From assembly GCA_034006575.1 (NCBI GenBank), contig JAVESN010000001.1:6233-70232 (forward strand): a stretch of 64,000 nucleotides of DNA. Reading direction: 5' to 3'. Numbering within the stretch: position 1 is the first letter of the stretch; the number at the start of each line of letters is the position of its first letter. Positions 14,365 to 23,373 of this stretch are shown piece by piece. The notes beneath the pieces were generated by a model, which saw only the letters and a program-made list of their open reading frames with translations, did no database searches and was not told the origin of the DNA. The translations under genes and the position numbers were made by a program. The DNA is from Methanimicrococcus sp. GTDB lineage: Archaea > Halobacteriota > Methanosarcinia > Methanosarcinales > Methanosarcinaceae.

Positions 14365-15840
14365 TTATCCCTTAATCACGCCGATTGGAATCAAGCGCGC
14401 CACCCTTTGCGCGATTCCGAGGCTGTCGACCACATCGACCACGTCGTCGCTGTTTTTGTAAACGTCCGGCGCTTCTTCGGCAATGACGGAGTCCCTTTGC
14501 GCTCTGACCGTAATTCCTTGTTTGGCCAATTCTTCTCGGATATTTTCCCCGCTCATGTTGTCTTTTGCTTTTCCGCGCCCCATGACGCGTCCCGCTCCGT
14601 GGCAGGCGCTTCCAAAGGATAAGGACATGGACTTGGGCCCGCCTTTTAAAATAAAAGACGGCGTTCCCATGCTTCCCGGAATCAATACCGGTTGTCCGAC
14701 ATCTCTATATTGGAGCGGCACTTCGGGGTGTCCCGCCGGAAACGCGCGGGTTGCGCCTTTTCTGTGAACGTAGACATTTTGTTTTTTCCCGTCAACGACA
14801 TGCTCCTCAAATTTAGCGACATTGTGCGCCACGTCATACAAAAGTTCCATTCCAAGCGCGTCGGTATCTTTTTTATATTGTTTCTCAAAGACTTCTCGGG
14901 TCCAGTGCATAATGATTTGGCGGTTCGCCCAAGCGTAATTGGCGCCGCATTTCATCGCGTCAAAATAATCTTGCGCTTCTTTGGATTGGGCGGGCGCGCA
15001 GGCCAATTGCATGTCCGGGATATGTATTTTGTATTTTTTGACGGCTTGGTTGAGCGTTTGCAAATGATCCGTGCAGATTTGGTGGCCGGCGCCGCGAGAG
15101 CCGCAATGGATCATGACGGTCACCTGCCCGACCGACAGTCCGTAGGCGGCGGCGGCAACCGGATCATAAATCTTATCAATATATTGAATTTCTAAGAAAT
15201 GGTTTCCGCTTCCGAGCGTTCCAAATTGCGGGCGCCCTCTTTTTCGGGCTTTTGCTCCGACTTTATCGGGATTTCCGCCTTCCATAAATCCGTAGGACTC
15301 GCAATTTTCCGTGTCGCTTTTTATTCCGTATCCGGCCTCAACCGCCCACTGTGAGCCGTGTAAAAATGCTTCCGTTAATTCGGTGTCGGTGACTTTGAAT
15401 TCTCCTTTTGAGCCGACGCCGGACGGGATTTTTCGAAACAGATTTTCCGTCAGCGCTTTAATATCGGGTATGACGTCTTCTCTTTGAAGAGTCGTTTTCA
15501 TTAAACGAACGCCGCAGTTGATGTCAAAGCCGACGCCCCCCGGGCTGATGACGCCTTCTTCTTCGTCAAAAGCCGCAACGCCGCCGATGGTAAAACCGTA
15601 TCCGAGATGGACGTCCGGCATGGCCATGGAATATTCTAAAATGCCCGGCAATACGGAAACGTTGGCCACTTGATTGATGGTTTCATTGTCAATGCTTCCC
15701 ATCAGCTTTTCCGATAAGAAGAGGCGGCCGGGAACTCTCATCCCGCCGACCCGATTTTTGGGGATGTCCCAAATATAATCGTTGACGCGATGTAATTCGT
15801 TTGTAATCCCCGCTTCGTTTTTTTCCGTTTGATTTGACAT
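14365..15840 (-). CDS. rtcB: tRNA-splicing ligase RtcB
   Basis: MPDVHLGYG, GFDINCG, GTLGSGNHFLE, HCGSRG, HNVAK, HRKGAT, HGAGR. Confidence 0.97.
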   Translation of the reverse strand: MSNQTEKNEAGITNELHRVNDYIWDIPKNRVGGMRVPGRLFLSEKLMGSIDNETINQVANVSVLPGILEYSMAMPDVHLGYGFTIGGVAAFDEEEGVISPGGVGFDINCGVRLMKTTLQREDVIPDIKALTENLFRKIPSGVGSKGEFKVTDTELTEAFLHGSQWAVEAGYGIKSDTENCESYGFMEGGNPDKVGAKARKRGRPQFGTLGSGNHFLEIQYIDKIYDPVAAAAYGLSVGQVTVMIHCGSRGAGHQICTDHLQTLNQAVKKYKIHIPDMQLACAPAQSKEAQDYFDAMKCGANYAWANRQIIMHWTREVFEKQYKKDTDALGMELLYDVAHNVAKFEEHVVDGKKQNVYVHRKGATRAFPAGHPEVPLQYRDVGQPVLIPGSMGTPSFILKGGPKSMSLSFGSACHGAGRVMGRGKAKDNMSGENIREELAKQGITVRAQRDSVIAEEAPDVYKNSDDVVDVVDSLGIAQRVARLIPIGVIKG

Positions 15841-15900
15841 ATTTTTTCCTGTGTATTTATTTTAATGATGTCTCTTCTTTGGTTTACTTTGATTTAAAAT

Positions 15901-15984
15901 GTTTGATTCTTTATTTTTTCAAAGCGTTTGATTCTTTATTTTTTCAAAGCGTTTGATTCTTTATTTTTTCAAAACGTTTGATTC
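15901..15984. repeat. 25-bp tandem repeat x3.4 between archease and rtcB
   Basis: gtttgattctttattttttcaaa(g/a)c. Confidence 0.9.
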
Positions 15985-16079
15985 CGTGTTTTTAAAAATG
16001 TTGACTTTTTGTTTTCTTAAAAGTGTTCCATTCTTTGTTTCTTAAAAAAACGTATTTTGTTTTTTCGGATTTCATCTAT

Positions 16080-16532
16080 TTATAAATCCAAAACGACTTC
16101 GGTTTCAAAACCGTCTTTTGTTTTTTCGACGCGGATCCCGTTATATGTAATCGCCTTGACTTCGGTTTTGAAATTTTGTTTTTGAGAATCAATCGGCTCG
16201 CCCGAAACGGCGGCATTTATGGAATACATTTCTTTGCCGTCTTCATCCGTTTTTGCTCCGACTTCTTTGACGGTCACGTTTCCGAGAACCGTTTCTTCGG
16301 CGTCGAATAAAAACAAAAGCTCCGATAAAAAATCAACCATTAAGTTTTCTAAATCAATCGCTTCAAGTTCGATTTCAAATTCGATTTGCGATTGAATCGT
16401 TGAGATGTCGGCAATCACGGTAAGGGTCGCCAAGGCGGCATTTTCAAAGACCTTTTCAAGCGTTTCTCCGTATGCGATAAATCGAATATCGGCGACGTGA
16501 TCTATATATTTAAAATTCGAATTTTGAGACAT
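16080..16532 (-). CDS. Archease
   Basis: DHVADI...EVKAITY...VLDL; directly upstream of rtcB; start at ATG 16532. Confidence 0.92.
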   Translation of the reverse strand: MSQNSNFKYIDHVADIRFIAYGETLEKVFENAALATLTVIADISTIQSQIEFEIELEAIDLENLMVDFLSELLFLFDAEETVLGNVTVKEVGAKTDEDGKEMYSINAAVSGEPIDSQKQNFKTEVKAITYNGIRVEKTKDGFETEVVLDL

Positions 16533-16545
16533 TTTTGGGCCGGCT

Positions 16546-17226
16546 TTATTTTTCTTTTTTTGCGCTCTCTTCTTTCCCCAAAACTTTCCAAATATGGTAA
16601 ATTCGCTGAAACGCGGTGATGTGAGAGCCTGCGGCAATGAGAATCATGCTCCATCCGAGAAACGAAATTCCGCCGAATGCCGCGGATTGGCTGTAATAGG
16701 CGATGTAGCCGAAATCTAAAAAGGTGGCCGCTAATATTATGATTAAACGGTCGGCGCGCCCCATGATTCCGCCGTAATATCTTCCGATGTCCATGGCTTG
16801 AGCCTGGGTTCCGAGATAGCTGGTTAAAAGAACGCCGGCAAGGGCGATGACTCCGATTTGCCACGGGCAAAATCCGCCGAATATAATTCCGGAAATGATA
16901 AAAATATCCGCGTAGCGGTCAATGACGTGGTCTAAAAAGTCGCCTTTTTTTCCGGCAATCCCGCGAAGCCGGGCAACGGCGCCGTCAAGCGCGTCCAGTC
17001 CGGAATTGATTAAAACGCAAATGGCCGCGACCAACAAAAAATAATGCGGCGCGGATATGTCAAAATGCTGTTCTCCGGCGATGTAATAAAAAATGCCGGC
17101 AAATATCGAAAAGATAAATGAAATGATGGAAAGCGTATTTGGGGATACGCCGATTTTAATAAAAATTTTTGCAACCGGATCGATAATAATTCCCGCAACA
17201 TATGGTCTGAGCGAATTAGCGGCCAT
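16546..17226 (-). CDS. CDP-alcohol phosphatidyltransferase (archaetidyl-inositol/glycerol phosphate synthase)
   Basis: DALDGAVAR...G.FLDHVIDRYAD signature; hydrophobic helices. Confidence 0.9.
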   Translation of the reverse strand: MAANSLRPYVAGIIIDPVAKIFIKIGVSPNTLSIISFIFSIFAGIFYYIAGEQHFDISAPHYFLLVAAICVLINSGLDALDGAVARLRGIAGKKGDFLDHVIDRYADIFIISGIIFGGFCPWQIGVIALAGVLLTSYLGTQAQAMDIGRYYGGIMGRADRLIIILAATFLDFGYIAYYSQSAAFGGISFLGWSMILIAAGSHITAFQRIYHIWKVLGKEESAKKEK

Positions 17227-17301
17227 TGAGTGTCTGTTTCCTTTATTTTCGTTTGTTTTCGTTTTCTATAGTTATCTGTTTATCTATAAATAACAATTCG
17301 C

Positions 17302-17910
17302 TTAAAACGAATTTCTTGCGGCGGCGTACAGATATCCGATTTTAGCCGAATGTTCCAATTGCGCCGTAATATGATATGCTTCTTCCAACGTCTCCCCGAC
17401 GGCAATTGTTCCGTGTCCGAATATGATTGCCCCCCTCGCGCCGGTTTTAAAAAGAGTCGCCGCGTTTTCTGCCAGCTCTTCGCTTCCGATGTCCCCGAAT
17501 ATAATCGGAATTTCTTTTAAAAATAATTTTCCCTCGCTGTCCATCGGGAAAATCCCATCGTTTCCCCTCTCGTTTTCCAAAATCGACATCACAACCGAAT
17601 ACGGGCAATGCGCGTGAAGAATCGCGCCGGCATTTGTTTCTTGATATATCCTCCGATGAACGGGCGTCTCCGAAGACGCCGTTTTTTCGATGACGTCGGA
17701 AACCTCCGGCGCCGTTAACGTCTCGGTACCATCGTTCCAAATCGGAACTTCAATCACACCATCTCGTCCGATTTCATCCAGCGGCGTTTTTGTTTTCGTA
17801 ATTAAAAACGAATTTCCCGACCTCGAACGAATGCTGATGTTTCCGAAATTCGCCTCAACCAAACCCGCGGAAACGATTTTCTTTCCGATTTCCGACATTT
17901 TTCGCTGCAT
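17302..17910 (-). CDS. Class II aldolase/adducin family (fuculose-1-phosphate aldolase-like)
   Basis: GNISIR, SSETPVH, HAHCPY, GHG motifs. Confidence 0.85.
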   Translation of the reverse strand: MQRKMSEIGKKIVSAGLVEANFGNISIRSRSGNSFLITKTKTPLDEIGRDGVIEVPIWNDGTETLTAPEVSDVIEKTASSETPVHRRIYQETNAGAILHAHCPYSVVMSILENERGNDGIFPMDSEGKLFLKEIPIIFGDIGSEELAENAATLFKTGARGAIIFGHGTIAVGETLEEAYHITAQLEHSAKIGYLYAAARNSF

Positions 17911-18150: not shown

Positions 18151-18222
18151 GCCTCGTTGGCTTAGGGGTATAGCGGCTGACTTGTAATCAGCAGGTCGCG
18201 TGTTCAAATCACGCACGGGGCT
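18151..18222 (+). tRNA. tRNA-Thr(UGU)
   Basis: Cloverleaf: GCCTCGT/ACGGGGC acceptor, GCTGA-ctTGTaa-TCAGC anticodon arm, GCGTG-TTCAAAT-CACGC T arm. Confidence 0.95.
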
Positions 18223-18229
18223 TACAATG

Positions 18230-18266
18230 GAATATTCAAATCATTAACGGATTTGAATATTCTTTT
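18230..18266 (+). terminator. Perfect 13-bp inverted repeat plus T-run after tRNA-Thr
   Basis: gaatattcaaatc-attaacg-gatttgaatattc followed by tttt. Confidence 0.6.
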
Positions 18267-18391
18267 AAAACTTCTTTTTATTTTCTGTCTTTTTAATTGA
18301 TATTTCTTAAAAATGTGGTCTCACGTTTTAAATAATCACCTAAAATAAAATAAAGAACCATTTTTATACACCATTCTATATATTGTCGGTT

Positions 18392-18598
18392 ATGACATCT
18401 GAAATCGCTATTATGAACCGAAATGCTATTGCTTTGGCAGCAGATAGCATCGTTACTCTTCAAACAGAAACCGGCAACAAAACATATTCAACGGCTAACA
18501 AACTTTTTGCATTAAGTTACAACCATTCAATTGGATTAATGGTTAATAACAACGCCACTTTTCTTGGAATCCCTTGGGAAACGGCTATCACTCTTTAA
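18392..18598 (+). pseudogene. Internally deleted copy of the Ntn-hydrolase gene at 19010
   Basis: MTSEIAIMNRNAIALAADSIVT...PWETAITL aligns with the first ~68 aa of 19010..20200, then jumps to sequence resembling that gene's 3' end. Confidence 0.85.
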
Positions 18599-18612
18599 AG
18601 GGGAATATTAAA

Positions 18613-18744
18613 ATGAAAACATACAAATCATATGAAGAATTTGAAAGAGAATTTCTTCCAAACAGGCATAAAAGAAAAGTAACGGAATCTTCCAAAAGCT
18701 TTGGTCGATTATCGACTTTAATGAAAACAAAAAATCAATATTAA
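18613..18744 (+). CDS. 43-aa basic microprotein (copy 1)
   Basis: MKTYKSYEEFEREFLPNRHKRKVTESSKSFGRLSTLMKTKNQY; collinear paralog of 20197..20325. Confidence 0.6.
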   Translation: MKTYKSYEEFEREFLPNRHKRKVTESSKSFGRLSTLMKTKNQY

Positions 18745-19009
18745 TTTTTTTCTCTTCAATCAAGAAGTGCATATTGTAGGGCTTCAACGGAACTCGTTTC
18801 ATAAAAAATTTCCTTGGTTTATTTTCATCACATTTTCTCCCCAGGGTCACGCGTAGAATTGAGGATTTTCTCTTATAATTTTTAAGATATTTTGATATAA
18901 TATTTCATTTCTATAATTATGCCGGAATCACATTTTTTTAAATTTGATAATTATCGTATTTTATTATATTAAACAACATTTTTATATTATCTGTTCTATT
19001 CATGTTTTT

Positions 19010-20200
19010 ATGACCTCCGAAATAGTCATTATGAGTAAAAATGCGGTTGCTTTGGCGGCGGATAGCATTGCCACCTTATATACAAAAACCGGCGACAAGA
19101 CATATTCAACGGCGAGCAAAATTTTTGAATTAAATTGTCATCATTCCATCGGATTCATGGTTAACAACAACGCCGCTTTTCTCGGGGTTCCCTGGGAAAC
19201 GATTATGACTCTTTACAAAAAAGAATCCGCCGAAAAATCATATGCCGCGTTGGAAGATTGCGTCGATGATTTTATAAAGTTTTTAGAAACGTGTCATTTA
19301 TTTTCACACGAAAACCAATTAAAAATGGCTTTTGCAGAATTGAGGTATTTCCAAGAGTTTATTCTTTATCGGTTCGAAAAAGCGTTAATTGAAAAATTCG
19401 ATGAAACATCCTCCGAATTAAGTTATGACGAACAAATCGCTGTATTGCGATCCTGTTTAAATAATTTGATCGAATCGACAAAAAAGATAGACGATTACAT
19501 AGATTGCGATGATTCGTTTATTGAAAAATATTTTGATGAAATCGAAGAGATATTGAAACAATATTATGAGAATATTTATGACGATTTAAAAATTGAAATA
19601 ATTGAACTCAATAAATGCTATTTTAGAAAAAGTCTTGAGGAATATTATACCCGCGTCGTTGTTGCCGGTTTCGGATGTAATGATCTTTTCCCCAAAATAT
19701 GTCATATAAACATCGACCGTATGATTGAAAATAAACTTTATTACACGAAAGATTTCGTAGAATCAGGCGATAACGGACACGGGGCGGCTATTTTCCCCTT
19801 TTCTCAACAGGACACAATAGACACATTTGTTTGCGGGATTAACACTCATTTCAAAGAGTATATCAAAGAATTAATCGATGAATTCTGTCCCGAGCAATCA
19901 AAAAACATGTCGGATAAAATTGAAGATTTTTCAGAAAATAATTATGCGTGTCCTATTTTTAGTGCCTTCAATCATTTGCCAAAATCAGAATTGGCGACGA
20001 TGGCCGAAACCCTCATTCATTTAACGTTTTTTAATCCTAAAATCTCCGCACAACCGATGTCGATGAACGGCTCGACGGATGTGGCCGTCATCTCCAAAGA
20101 GGAAGGTTTTGTATGGATTAAACGCGAATATTATTTTGAGGCGAGTTTAAATTATCATTATATTGCAAAATATTATAATTTAATGGGAGTATTTAAATGA
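19010..20200 (+). CDS. Ntn-hydrolase / proteasome-beta-like protein with large helical insertion
   Basis: Start at ATG 19010 gives M-T1-SEIVIMSKNAVALAADS...KIF (Thr1 nucleophile, AADS, K33-like motifs); C-terminal DVAVISKEEGFVWIKR; TATA-like TTTTATA ~25 bp upstream. Confidence 0.75.
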   Translation: MTSEIVIMSKNAVALAADSIATLYTKTGDKTYSTASKIFELNCHHSIGFMVNNNAAFLGVPWETIMTLYKKESAEKSYAALEDCVDDFIKFLETCHLFSHENQLKMAFAELRYFQEFILYRFEKALIEKFDETSSELSYDEQIAVLRSCLNNLIESTKKIDDYIDCDDSFIEKYFDEIEEILKQYYENIYDDLKIEIIELNKCYFRKSLEEYYTRVVVAGFGCNDLFPKICHINIDRMIENKLYYTKDFVESGDNGHGAAIFPFSQQDTIDTFVCGINTHFKEYIKELIDEFCPEQSKNMSDKIEDFSENNYACPIFSAFNHLPKSELATMAETLIHLTFFNPKISAQPMSMNGSTDVAVISKEEGFVWIKREYYFEASLNYHYIAKYYNLMGVFK

Positions 20201-20325
20201 AAAAATACAAATCTTTTGAAGAATTTGAAAAAGAATTTCTTCCAAACAGGCACAAAAGAAAAACCACAGAACCCTCCCAAAACTTTGACCGATTCTTTGC
20301 TTCAATGAAAACAAAAAACCGATAA
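20197..20325 (+). CDS. 42-aa basic microprotein (copy 2), ATGA-coupled to the Ntn-hydrolase
   Basis: MKKYKSFEEFEKEFLPNRHKRKTTEPSQNFDRFFASMKTKNR; GGGAG RBS-like element upstream; start overlaps the upstream TGA. Confidence 0.65.
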   Translation: MKKYKSFEEFEKEFLPNRHKRKTTEPSQNFDRFFASMKTKNR

Positions 20326-20417
20326 CCTTTTTTATATTCCATTTTTTATTTTTATATCTCATTTTTTATTTATAATATATTTTTTATTTTGAATTCATTT
20401 TTTTATTTTTAATCTTC

Positions 20418-21170: not shown

Positions 21171-21680
21171 AAACCGTAGATAGTTCTTTTCATTCTTTAA
21201 AGTTTATGAAAAAATCATTTTTTAAGGCTTTTTAAAACCAATTTAATCGGGCAAAAAAGCAAATCAAAATTAAATAAAAAACGCATCGAAAGTAATCGTC
21301 GTTTCAATTTTTGAAATATTTCCAACGCGTGTGTTTCAATCCTCTCATTGAAAAATCGGATTGATTTCTCCTTATCGACTTCTTATCTGAAATTTATTCT
21401 TATATCGCTATCGTTTTTTTCTTTCGCTTAAACCATTGTTTAAATCCGATTTTCATGAAACGATTCTTTTCGCAAATGGAACCGTTAATCCGTAATACGC
21501 GCTATCCGGCGGGCTTTTAAAACACACCTGTTTCATCCGATTTCTTCATTCATACGTCTATTGTTTTATTTTTATATTATCTCTGTTTTATATTTTGTCT
21601 CCTCTCTATATTGTTTAATTTTTATATTATTCAGTCCTTTTATATTATCCCCTCTGTTTTATTCCGGTTTTTTTATTTTT

Positions 21681-22079
21681 TCACATGATATCTTCTAATC
21701 TTTTTAACGCATTGGAATATCGTAACTCCCCGTTTGCATCTTTTATCACATAGTCTTCACGCCTGACCGTGCAAAAGAAATCTTTTCTTTCCTTATGAAT
21801 GTCGGCAACCATCGTTGTTACGATGTAAATCGTTCCATCTTTTTCAGGCGGCAGCTTTGTTTTTGTTTTGTCCGGTATGGATGAGAATATTTTTATTCCA
21901 TTGACGTAACACTATAAAATTTTTTTAACGTGAATCGTTACGATTTTATCTCCCAACGCGGCAGGATAAATGGACAATTCATTATCTTCATTCAATATGA
22001 CAACATTGTTTCGGGTGGTGTTTACAATCTTGTATCCGGAATATTCATACACGTCATTGTCTTCATTCGTTAAATTCAT
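21681..22079 (-). CDS. Hypothetical (phage-type) protein, 132 codons with one in-frame TAG at 21912-21914
   Basis: Manual translation: MNLTNED...KIVNTTRNNVVIL...VKKIL*CYVNGIKIF...KLPPEKDGTIYIVTTMVA...RKDFF...KDANGELRYSNALKRLEDIM; both halves fit one family pattern (NLTPH...LP..EG..YIVS...R.D...RD..G). Confidence 0.6.
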
Positions 22080-22085
22080 TAACAG

Positions 22086-22376
22086 TCACCACCCCGTTTG
22101 CGAAATGACGCCCTCTTCTTTTATGCTAATGCGGTCCGTGTCAACGTTTCCTTTAAATCTTAATATTTCCCAAAACTTTCTGACACGCATTGATTGTAAG
22201 TAAGGATGTTTTTTTCCGTCATAGAAAACATCATTTTTTATTTTCCCCGGATTTTCTCCTGTTTCTTGTTTAAACAACCCGGCGTATTCAATGTTGCAAC
22301 TCCGACCTCTTCCGGATGTATCGCCCCGACATATGCCATTCCCGCAACCGCATTTTTTTTTCGGTCTTTCTTTCAT
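22086..22376 (-). CDS. Hypothetical protein (possibly degenerate)
   Basis: ORF track only; stop lies 6 nt before the ATG of the 22079 gene, consistent with a small operon; no recognisable motif. Confidence 0.3.
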   Translation of the reverse strand: MKERPKKKCGCGNGICRGDTSGRGRSCNIEYAGLFKQETGENPGKIKNDVFYDGKKHPYLQSMRVRKFWEILRFKGNVDTDRISIKEEGVISQTGW

Positions 22377-22640
22377 TTTTAATCACTCTTTCCTATCCCT
22401 TCGCATTTTTATAAAACGATGGTTTTAACCCATCAAATTATATTTAAAAAAACAAACACTTATACGAATAGGTAACATAATAATCTATTCTGTAAAGTTT
22501 AAATTATAAAAAAGGTTTTGAATTTATCAAAAAATATCCGGTGTCATTCGATAAACTCAAGCCGATCTCCTAAACGTCGCCGGCGGCTCATTCATCTCTG
22601 TCTTTTGGAGTCATTTCATTCGATGACCCCTTTTGAGTTT

Positions 22641-23201
22641 TTAATATCTTTCATATCCCGTCGCTGTTTGTCTTTTTTCAAGAGCGAATGTCAGCGCGTT
22701 AATCTGTGTCGGAATCGCACCGATTGCCGTGCACGTTTCAAGAGAAATGCCTTTGGTTGTAATGTCCAAATGATATTGGGCTCTTTCAAAAAGGTCTTTT
22801 GGGAGTCCTTTTCGACCCAAACCGACTAAAAACATATAGGATTTCTTTTTCATATTTCCGGCGGCGACATCAAGCGGCGTCAACGTTTTTTGAGGGGACG
22901 GTTTGGAGGTGGTTGTGACAACCGAGCCGAAATGCGCGGGAAAGCCTTTTGGAGGCAAATCCGAGACAAACAAATGATGTTCTTGGTTTAACAAATCCAA
23001 ATATTTTCCGGATTCTCCGATTGTGGTTTTATCCATCACGAATTCAACCAGCTCATTTTTTTCCATTTTAAACGGAAAATCAAAAAGCGCAAGCGAAAAA
23101 CCGTAAGCGTAGCAAATCGGCGCGGCTCTCGCAATCGCTCGGTAATGCGCGTCAACGATTTTGATTTTATCATACATATTTACAATGCCCATTGTCAGCA
23201 T
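22641..23201 (-). CDS. DUF531 family protein (predicted SPOUT-class RNA methyltransferase)
   Basis: MLTMGIVNMYDK...AHYRAIARAAP...GLGRKGLP...HLDIT..GISLETCTAIG. Confidence 0.8.
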   Translation of the reverse strand: MLTMGIVNMYDKIKIVDAHYRAIARAAPICYAYGFSLALFDFPFKMEKNELVEFVMDKTTIGESGKYLDLLNQEHHLFVSDLPPKGFPAHFGSVVTTTSKPSPQKTLTPLDVAAGNMKKKSYMFLVGLGRKGLPKDLFERAQYHLDITTKGISLETCTAIGAIPTQINALTFALEKRQTATGYERY

Positions 23202-23373
23202 AAATCTCTCTCTTTGTTGGTTCTTCAAATTATTTTAAGGAATTTGGATTTTTGGTTTTTATTCTTCTTCAAAACTCGATAGCGCATTTTTATTTTTTCT
23301 GAAAACGTGACGACGGCAAAACAATAAATGCCGCGCGGCGCAAAAAGAGTCGAGTCCGATTTCTTTTGTATAT

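Follow-up and report, generated by a model that had tools for sequence, protein, structure and literature searches.

A two-gene cassette lying 3' of a tRNA-Thr gene was analysed in a window of 64,000 nucleotides (nt), the whole stretch of DNA considered here, taken from contig JAVESN010000001.1 of a Methanimicrococcus sp. The first gene encodes an N-terminal-threonine hydrolase of the proteasome-beta fold and the second, which overlaps its stop codon, encodes a small basic protein. Confidence is high both in what the two genes are and in their pairing. In the original prediction, made from the letters alone, a two-gene unit of this kind had been described as occurring twice in an AT-rich stretch just downstream of tRNA-Thr(UGU). 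The tRNA gene was located there by ARAGORN, as the sole tRNA called by this program in the window, and GC content is 0.30-0.35 over 18-20 kb compared with 0.42-0.50 upstream, the AT-rich variable region 3' of the tRNA measuring 2.15 kb. Regarding the unit itself, one intact module (copy 2) is present at 19010-20325, while the other (copy 1) is a remnant whose hydrolase gene has lost approximately 963 nt and whose micro open reading frame (micro-ORF) is intact. The features, in window coordinates, are as follows.

18151-18222, plus strand: tRNA-Thr (anticodon UGU), identical in sequence in four congeners; left anchor of the variable region
18230-18266, plus strand: perfect 13-bp hairpin (GAATATTCAAATC / GATTTGAATATTC) followed by a T-run, read from the sequence
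18361-18368, plus strand: TATA-box-like TTTTTATA, ~27 nt before the copy 1 ATG; putative promoter
18392-18598, plus strand: copy 1 hydrolase remnant, an N-terminal ORF of 68 amino acids (aa) covering the Thr1, Asp17 and Lys33 region, which stops at the deletion junction
18613-18744, plus strand: copy 1 micro-ORF, intact and 43 aa long; a GGGG Shine-Dalgarno-like element stands 9-13 nt before it
18979-18986, plus strand: TATA-box-like TTTTTATA, ~27 nt before the copy 2 ATG; putative function
19010-20200, plus strand: copy 2 enzyme gene, 396 aa, a stand-alone proteasome-beta-fold N-terminal-threonine hydrolase of the type "Proteasome homologs with Multiple Insertions" (PMI)
20197-20325, plus strand: copy 2 micro-ORF, 42 aa, its ATG overlapping the hydrolase TGA stop as ATGA
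20326-20417, plus strand: T-rich repeats with a period of ~19 nt, between the module and a convergent RNase_H_2 gene; right edge of the variable region

The copy 2 enzyme begins M-T-S-E-I from ATG 19010, with the start and length that had been proposed, and this start is preferred over that of a longer ORF opening at TTG 18944 because every homologue starts M-T. The overlapping micro-ORF was likewise found as described: Lys and Arg make up 12 of its 42 residues, and its product bears the family motif K-S-F-E-E-F-E-K-E-F-L-P. A Shine-Dalgarno-like GGGAG is located at 20185-20189, 8-12 nt before its start. Upstream of the enzyme, a CATTTTTATA element is common to copies 1 and 2, the remainder of the 60 upstream nt being merely 52% identical, and these elements would correspond to the archaeal TATA box. 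Its position ~27 nt before the copy 1 ATG suggests a leaderless or short-leader transcript. A T7 run is present 3' of the copy 1 micro-ORF.

In copy 1, positions 18390-18597 match 19008-19215 at 78% nt identity and positions 18595-18749 match 20179-20333 at 81%. Because these two matches abut, an internal deletion of ~963 nt in the copy 1 hydrolase gene is indicated, and the junction displays 'ttta' microhomology. The remnant is 69% identical in aa sequence to residues 1-71 of copy 2, and the two micro-proteins are also 69% identical. Over the 68 shared hydrolase codons the synonymous divergence (dS) is 0.90 and the ratio of nonsynonymous to synonymous divergence (dN/dS) is 0.17, implying purifying selection on both genes for most of their separation; dN/dS over the first 22 codons of the two micro-ORFs is 0.24. 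Judged by sequence divergence, the two copies did not arise by recent duplication and are either old paralogues or separate acquisitions. No further cassette copies were found elsewhere in the genome (1.68 Mb, 82% complete), which encodes its canonical proteasome alpha and beta subunits (PsmA and PsmB) away from the cassette, with PF00227 matches at 209 and 196 bits.

Fold and family of the enzyme

The predicted structure places the enzyme among the proteasome-like N-terminal nucleophile (Ntn) hydrolases, as had been anticipated, and the original prediction thereby passes the first of its two refutation checks, which turned on the presence of this fold. The AlphaFold2 (AF2) model has a mean predicted local distance difference test (pLDDT) of 85.4 and a predicted template modelling score (pTM) of 0.83, and displays the alpha-beta-beta-alpha sandwich of this group, with strands S1-S11 and helices H1-H4. 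Its best VIA-align matches are 20S beta subunits, with Z of 15.0-15.7 over 181-186 residues and root-mean-square deviations of 3.4-3.7; the match at Z 15.7 covers 186 residues (deviation 3.7) and spans model residues 1-371, and model residues 1-2 superpose on residues 1-2 of mature 20S beta chains. Further matches were obtained to Anbu (Z 15.2), BPH (12.0), HslV (11.6) and connectase (10.7), other Ntn hydrolases remaining below 10, while Foldseek returned a proteasome-beta match at E 5e-6.

The catalytic residues are conserved to a degree that bears out the Thr1 and Lys33 motifs originally claimed. The residue following the initiator is Thr in 257 of 258 full-length members and Ser in 1, an Asp stands exactly 16 residues after it in all 258, and the Lys33-type Lys is present in every one of them (258/258). 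The enzyme has no propeptide and its sequence opens M-T, so removal of the Met is predicted to expose Thr1. When aligned by hhalign with the genome's own PsmB, T2, D18 and K37 fall on Thr1, Glu17 and Lys33, at a low probability which arises from the use of a single sequence as the PsmB template. Within a 36-member alignment, M1, T2, and P263, A265 and Q266 of a PFAQ motif are nearly invariant, and D18, S19, K37, G48, W62-E63, G220-F-G222 and F264 are invariant, together with G354 and D357-V-A359 of the block G353-G-P-x-D-V-A-V. The Gly47 position is Gly in the family consensus and Asn (NNN) in the window protein and in ~15% of members. GFG stands where the proteasome has GSG (Ser129), and the family loop E-T-V-G-G-P is plausibly the counterpart of D166-S-A-S-G-G, proteasome Asp166 to Gly170, as judged from the alignment. 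A profile match aligned the C-terminal strand GGPIDVAVISKGDGF to Thermoplasma beta at E 0.017; we take the corresponding Thermoplasma strand to be GGMIDVAVITRKDGY, a resemblance backed just by this short match. On the model and alignments, the enzyme is a proteasome-beta-fold Ntn enzyme with conserved catalytic residues.

What distinguishes it from a proteasome subunit is principally two helical insertions, amounting to ~200 extra residues. The first (approximately residues 81-206) follows H1/H2 and is acidic, with 31 Asp/Glu against 14 Lys/Arg, in line with the long acidic helical insert first noticed in the sequence. The second (approximately residues 279-346) is located between H3 and H4. 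In the model, the stretch from H2 to S6 accommodates helices 100-206 and that from H3 to S10 helices 279-346; H1/H2 are present (helices 62-73 and 81-94), and a short hairpin alone connects strands 21-25 and 28-32. The enzyme is not a canonical 20S beta subunit, since no PF00227 match was obtained at E up to 10 and its 396 aa exceed the ~200-240 aa of PsmB. This too had been foreseen, and the genome has its own PsmB. Nothing meaningful came from scanning both cassette proteins against Pfam and NCBIfam or from comparing the hydrolase by phmmer with Protein Data Bank (PDB) sequences. Matches of insertion 1 to Cullin-3 helical repeats in a PDB profile search (E ~1e-3) were rejected as helical-composition noise. 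Long fused forms of the enzyme (773-2205 aa) were sought and none was found, which is weak evidence.

The family is large. A first search gave 346 proteins, and a wider set comprises 4375 clusters at 50% identity, 1557 of them at E 1e-30 or better, with members in at least 517 species genomes from many bacterial phyla and Euryarchaeota. Enzyme length across the family is 390-440 aa, and the family corresponds to PHROG 5990, to which no function is assigned in that resource. Fuchs, Alva and Lupas catalogued 22 new proteasome homologues in 2021, among them the PMI groups (PMC8665760). H3/H4 insertions occur in PMI-2 to PMI-6, and a long insertion after H1/H2 combined with an H3/H4 insertion is given just for PMI-3 and PMI-4. 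PMI-4, the largest PMI group, is listed in Proteobacteria, Firmicutes, Actinobacteria, Bacteroidetes, PVC, Cyanobacteria, Euryarchaeota and, in Table 1, phages (PMC8665760). Since its insertion sites match that combination, the present enzyme fits PMI-3 or PMI-4, an uncharacterised type catalogued computationally; the assignment is based on insertion sites and distribution. The same authors argued that insertions at the H1/H2 and H3/H4 sites should prevent assembly into rings or double rings (PMC8665760), which implies that this enzyme family needs some other control of its active site. Proteasome-type threonine proteases are normally made safe inside rings.

The mini-protein partner

The pairing of the enzyme with a small ORF extends far beyond this genome. 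The comparison covered 81 non-redundant loci that leave space 3' of the enzyme gene. In 75 of them this gene is abutted by an ORF on the same strand, 40-90 aa long (median 64), whose start lies within -60 to +30 nt of the stop, compared with 97 of 425 (23%) control genes, the controls being neighbouring genes of at least 200 aa. The odds ratio of 42 is to be read with the relatedness of some genomes in mind, as these are not independent. The pairing is far beyond chance and occurs in both bacteria and archaea, and in phages and satellites as well; the original prediction, which homologues lacking any comparable downstream micro-protein would have overturned, passes this check as well. Downstream of the homologue in Methanimicrococcus hacksteinii At1 (45% identity) stands a 43-aa ORF that bears the same motif, and downstream of a metagenomic relative of the methanogen clade a 45-aa ORF. 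Distant homologues behave similarly, a Pyrohabitans archaeon carrying a 57-aa ORF and an Aminicenantes bacterium a 60-aa ORF at this position. In one natural case (P0235, 478 aa) enzyme and partner are fused in frame. Departures from the pattern include L098, which has no evident partner, and L065, where the enzyme stop is abutted just by a 35-aa ORF without the motif.

Within the cassette the partner is basic, translationally coupled and 42-85 aa long. Its general plan consists of a basic N-terminus, the motif [FY]xSxxE[FY]x[KR]x[FY][FL]P with a near-invariant Pro, a charged linker and a helix of the form G..LA.E.L..I+..L, and it usually ends in this amphipathic helix ~35 residues past the motif. 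Counted from the motif Pro, the C-terminus lies 32-41 residues away in 34 of 36 loci and 25-27 residues away in the window and its closest relatives. A hidden Markov model built from motif-bearing partners recognises 45 distinct loci. The remaining partners, mostly from Bacteroidota and Gammaproteobacteria, have the same placement and in most cases a similar C-terminal amphipathic helix, with a different N-terminal half. The partner of L096 (G002, 2682-2939) is 85 aa as called, and an internal Met gives a 63-aa form with H-K-T-F-K-D-V-F-P; partner starts are therefore uncertain in several loci. A co-variation of the short H3/H4 insertion with the shortened partner tail of the methanogen clade was considered and found no support (Spearman rho 0.17, p 0.32), and Methanolapillus combines a short H3/H4 insertion with a normal tail. 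The search for a third conserved gene, in which 753 neighbouring ORFs of the 81 loci were clustered, yielded no cluster with a constant position and none that extends to more than 7 loci.

Prediction of the complex between enzyme and partner lends weak support to a physical association. The interface score ipSAE (interaction prediction score from aligned errors) was 0.60 (runs 0.57, 0.61 and 0.60) against 0.00 for the best control, with contact agreement between runs of at least 84% and partner pLDDT of at least 69. The prediction was made with author-built alignments and returned no interface. Of the solved complexes in the calibration, 58 of 80 came up to the mark, as did 2 of 110 mismatches, and scores of 0.60 or lower belonged to just 7 of the 80 solved complexes and to both mismatches.

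Movement of the cassette and state of its copies

The cassette moves horizontally. Of ten other genomes of the genus Methanimicrococcus searched, three carry the cassette gene, and in At1 (G008) it is located at another site, beside tRNA-Asp. The interval from the class II aldolase gene with tRNA-Thr to the convergent RNase_H_2 gene was compared between congeners, with the following contents.

Window, 2508 nt: two cassette copies
At1 (G008), 659 nt: nearly empty
G009, 1711 nt: Abi_2 and YbjQ (L112, 955-2246)
G001, 2945 nt: two Abi_2 and YbjQ (L113, 995-3325)
G004, 6951 nt: 776-aa S8 peptidase, 376-aa AAA ATPase, 488-aa protein without a Pfam match and IS1595 transposase (L114, 1290-7505)

The Abi_2 proteins (PF07751) of G001 match at E 1e-51 to 1e-53 and are accompanied by a YbjQ_1 protein. 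It is also observed that the S8-AAA pair of G004 may be a conflict system of its own. In the alignments, identity runs through the tRNA and the hairpin at 18230-18266 and then gives way to full divergence up to the 3' end of the RNase_H_2 gene, indicating that the tRNA-Thr site is a hot spot for cargo; the suspected acquisition at a tRNA hot spot is in this respect supported by synteny, the interval being nearly empty in one congener and filled by Abi_2 or other cargo in three. The hairpin is the final conserved sequence and forms the left edge of the variable region. Its equivalent is present in three of four congeners with compensatory changes to the stem bases, and it is probably the tRNA terminator, while the repeats at 20326-20417 would act as stacked archaeal oligo-T terminators. 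Neither an integrase nor an att-like repeat of the tRNA 3' end was found in the interval from tRNA-Thr to RNase_H_2. A 16-nt match to the tRNA 3' end was rejected as an att site, being at chance level and actually part of the terminator hairpin.

Outside the genus, the cassette enzyme was found in 13 of 50,697 phage or satellite records, and in all three that were opened the small ORF follows. In a lambdoid Providencia phage the cassette is located between Q and the lysis genes, in a Porphyromonas phage among head-neck genes, and in a Streptococcus satellite at the outer end, other satellites showing the same placement by match coordinates.

In the window, both enzyme genes appear from their sequences to be compromised or altered and both micro-ORFs intact. 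In addition to what copy 1 has lost, the copy 2 enzyme departs from 17 of the 82 columns conserved to 85% or more, compared with 0-9 for other aligned members and 3-8 for near relatives. The most obvious change is located before the DVAV strand, where M-S-M-N-G-S replaces the conserved E-T-V-G-G-P. This loop is unique among 265 members, the first loop position being otherwise E, rarely Q or D. ETVGGP, PFAQ and SFK are all retained in P0128, the nearest relative to hand (74% identity over residues 212-389), implying that the copy 2 changes arose recently in the lineage, and an identical copy 2 protein on 13 public contigs indicates that they are not an assembly error. At N9, N36, S42 and I66 the copy 1 remnant has the consensus residues of the family and copy 2 does not, and the N-terminus of the remnant is nearer the consensus than that of copy 2. 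A second hydrolase copy in a related genome, G029 (L100, 1483-2105), is also broken, into pieces of 52 aa and 122 aa, and is truncated beside an ORF resembling that of an insertion sequence (IS), so that broken copies recur. This copy lost its 3' end and its partner to the IS element, and an orphan partner ORF was accordingly rejected as a general decay pattern.

The locus is probably attenuated in this genome, and the intact copy 2 may be decaying. Whether the whole locus is decaying cargo without current function here is a matter whose odds are independent of any reading of the family's role, and such a state is judged somewhat unlikely. The loss of ~963 nt from copy 1, the deviations of copy 2 including its uniquely lost ETVGGP loop, and the failure to find the cassette in seven of the ten congeners searched would all be in keeping with decay. 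Against it, copy 2 retains a full open frame with Thr1, Asp17 and Lys33 intact, the identical protein recurs on the 13 contigs, dN/dS between the copies is low over the shared N-terminus, and the promoter-like and Shine-Dalgarno-like elements are kept; moreover, the copy 2 changes could equally reflect altered specificity.

Beyond the variable region, an AT-rich stretch goes on at 21200-23300 of the window. It contains two small ORFs without Pfam matches, at 21912-22079 (55 aa) and 22086-22376 (96 aa, with a Cys-rich N-terminus), and a DUF531 gene follows at 22641-23228. The opposite flank (14365-17910, all on the minus strand) is of housekeeping type and encodes RtcB, archease, CDP-alcohol phosphatidyltransferase and class II aldolase. 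As called, the ORFs of archease (16080-16637) and of the phosphatidyltransferase (16546-17226) share ~90 nt, and the true archease start is therefore probably further downstream.

Possible function and comparison with known systems

The reading we prefer is that the cassette is a mobile conflict module serving phage exclusion or abortive infection. Taken whole, including its mechanism, this statement is tentative and its chances fall slightly short of even. According to this proposal, the mini-protein would bind the enzyme 1:1 and control access to the unshielded Thr1 site as gate, inhibitor or sensor, possibly being cleaved at or near its aromatic-Pro motif, and the threonine protease would be the effector, cutting host or phage proteins once released. 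The site is probably not hidden in a ring, for which reason the partner most likely either controls the active site or is its target. A conflict function is suggested by the accessory, phage- and satellite-borne and patchy distribution. The original prediction had put forward a defence or toxin-antitoxin-like role, which stays an inference. A broader claim is more doubtful, namely that a new class of two-component conflict system is represented, in which an obligate micro-protein either gates a non-compartmentalised proteasome-like threonine protease (or a transpeptidase of the connectase kind) or is its target, the pair being spread by phages, satellites and islands through both prokaryotic domains and the window recording a path of decay in which the enzyme goes first and the micro-protein stays.

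Several observations weigh against this proposal. The complex score is just a weak pass, and when the natural fusion P0235 was folded by AF2 the partner was not docked, its motif region having pLDDT below 50 and its C-terminal helix 65-73. The defence-type neighbours of the hot spot in sister species amount to guilt by association. Immediate neighbours at the 81 loci are mostly housekeeping genes; the 122 neighbours scanned include 3 of the N6_N4_Mtase family (the top restriction-modification methylase family), 2 integrases and 2 AbiEii-like AAA_21 proteins. With so few of defence type, the link to defence islands is modest at best. Plasmids carry the cassette in 10 of 72,556 records. The PADLOC comparison that had been suggested for recognising a known defence system was negative, neither protein matching any model of PADLOC-DB 2.0 (2023 library) at E up to 10. 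Finally, the pattern of a damaged enzyme and a kept partner is a single case.

The alternative that survives best holds that the protein is a connectase-like monomeric Thr1 enzyme and the mini-protein its dedicated substrate, cleaved or transpeptidated, perhaps at the aromatic-Pro bond. The outcome would be the maturation of a small peptide with an effector or regulatory function, or its ligation to another protein, and phage conflict would not be the primary role. This account, which we regard as unlikely, draws on the structural match at Z 10.7, on the essentially invariant catalytic residues, on the expectation that the insertions prevent rings (PMC8665760), and on the near-invariant Pro of the partner, which stands in a conserved motif at a fixed distance from the C-terminus. 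In its published description, connectase is a monomeric proteasome homologue acting on one short motif (KDPGA, cut before Pro; PMC7980362). However, the stop/start overlap and the natural fusion suggest a stoichiometric complex, not substrate turnover. The partner evolves fast outside the motif, which is unrecognisable in Bacteroidota and Gammaproteobacteria, and the accessory positions on phages and satellites fit cargo better than housekeeping genes. Furthermore, the family lacks the defining S3/S4 helical insertion of connectase and keeps H1/H2.

A toxin-antitoxin or addiction role has a lower probability again. Here the unshielded protease would be toxic to its own cell and the mini-protein a labile antidote, the pair persisting by post-segregational killing. 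A translationally coupled, self-contained two-gene cassette in variable contexts has the appropriate form, the partner evolves faster than the enzyme, and damage to both enzyme copies with both partner ORFs intact is how decay would be expected to proceed with a harmful enzyme. Carriage on plasmids is nevertheless very rare, neither a DNA-binding antitoxin domain nor a Pfam match could be recognised in the partner, the broken copy in G029 lost its partner, and the enzymes of L098 and L065 stand respectively with no evident partner and with just the motif-less ORF.

Least probable of all is a function serving the phage or satellite itself (processing of virion or host proteins, or counter-defence), with chromosomal copies as leftovers of mobile elements: the family is PHROG 5990, PMI-4 is marked in phages in Table 1 of PMC8665760, and the cassette occupies a late-gene position in the Providencia phage and lies among head-neck genes in the Porphyromonas phage, but 13 phage records compare with at least 517 cellular species, the surroundings of most chromosomal loci are of housekeeping type and free of prophage genes, and the phage positions are not fixed, as is typical of morons and not of core functions.

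Should the cassette prove to be a defence system, it would provide a new effector chemistry for prokaryotic immunity; should it prove to be a ligase of the connectase kind that comes with its own tag, it could find use in protein engineering. What this genome itself contributes is more modest, in that a cargo site at tRNA-Thr and a possible order of decay are documented for Methanimicrococcus-type methanogens.

With regard to known systems, the best structural matches are to the 20S beta subunits, HslV, Anbu and BPH (Z 11.6-15.7), with the catalytic triad in register. Unlike these, the present cassette has no alpha subunit, HslU or other ATPase partner, and unlike 20S beta the enzyme has its ~200 extra residues at sites expected, per Fuchs et al., to block ring assembly. 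Connectase (MJ0548 / M. mazei) resembles the present family, which is stand-alone and predicted not to form rings, and both occur in methanogens. Connectase itself lacks H1/H2, has a two-helix lid at S3/S4 and often a C-terminal beta-barrel, whereas the present family keeps H1/H2, has a short S3/S4 hairpin and carries its insertions elsewhere, and is thus not a connectase; nor is the connectase substrate MtrA encoded beside its enzyme.

In the Pup-proteasome cluster of Actinobacteria, a small and largely disordered protein that becomes helical on binding is encoded beside a proteasome-type protease gene, and the arrangement of the present cassette is similar in that a small protein is encoded next to such a gene. 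The present partner, however, has no conserved C-terminal Gly-Gly-Gln/Glu, and there is no PafA/Dop ligase/deamidase and no ATPase. As its termini vary, the partner is unlikely to be a conjugated tag.

The closest likeness is to PMI-3 and PMI-4, with which the enzyme shares the proteasome-like fold, Thr1, Asp17, Lys33, the absence of a propeptide and both insertions; the likeness to the published representatives (HDY66466.1 and OGZ26396.1) is by the description of insertions and not by sequence. The wide and patchy distribution of a large group over bacterial phyla, Euryarchaeota and phages is like that of PMI-4. The original prediction regarded the whole architecture as undescribed, which holds for part of it. 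The hydrolase family was already known, being catalogued as PMI-3/PMI-4 and PHROG 5990, while the partner and the two-gene layout are absent from the literature searched, in which neither a follow-up paper on PMI-4 nor a described defence system with a proteasome-like component was found. The difference from the catalogued groups is that a coupled mini-protein gene is present 3' of the enzyme gene in ~93% of the present loci, whereas the authors found no genomic context or co-occurrence pattern for any new homologue (PMC8665760). Such a small ORF is easily missed by gene callers. It supplies the context missing from that study, the one catalogue of these proteins met with in the literature searched, and, as a conserved and coupled partner, an immediately testable hypothesis for PMI-type enzymes.

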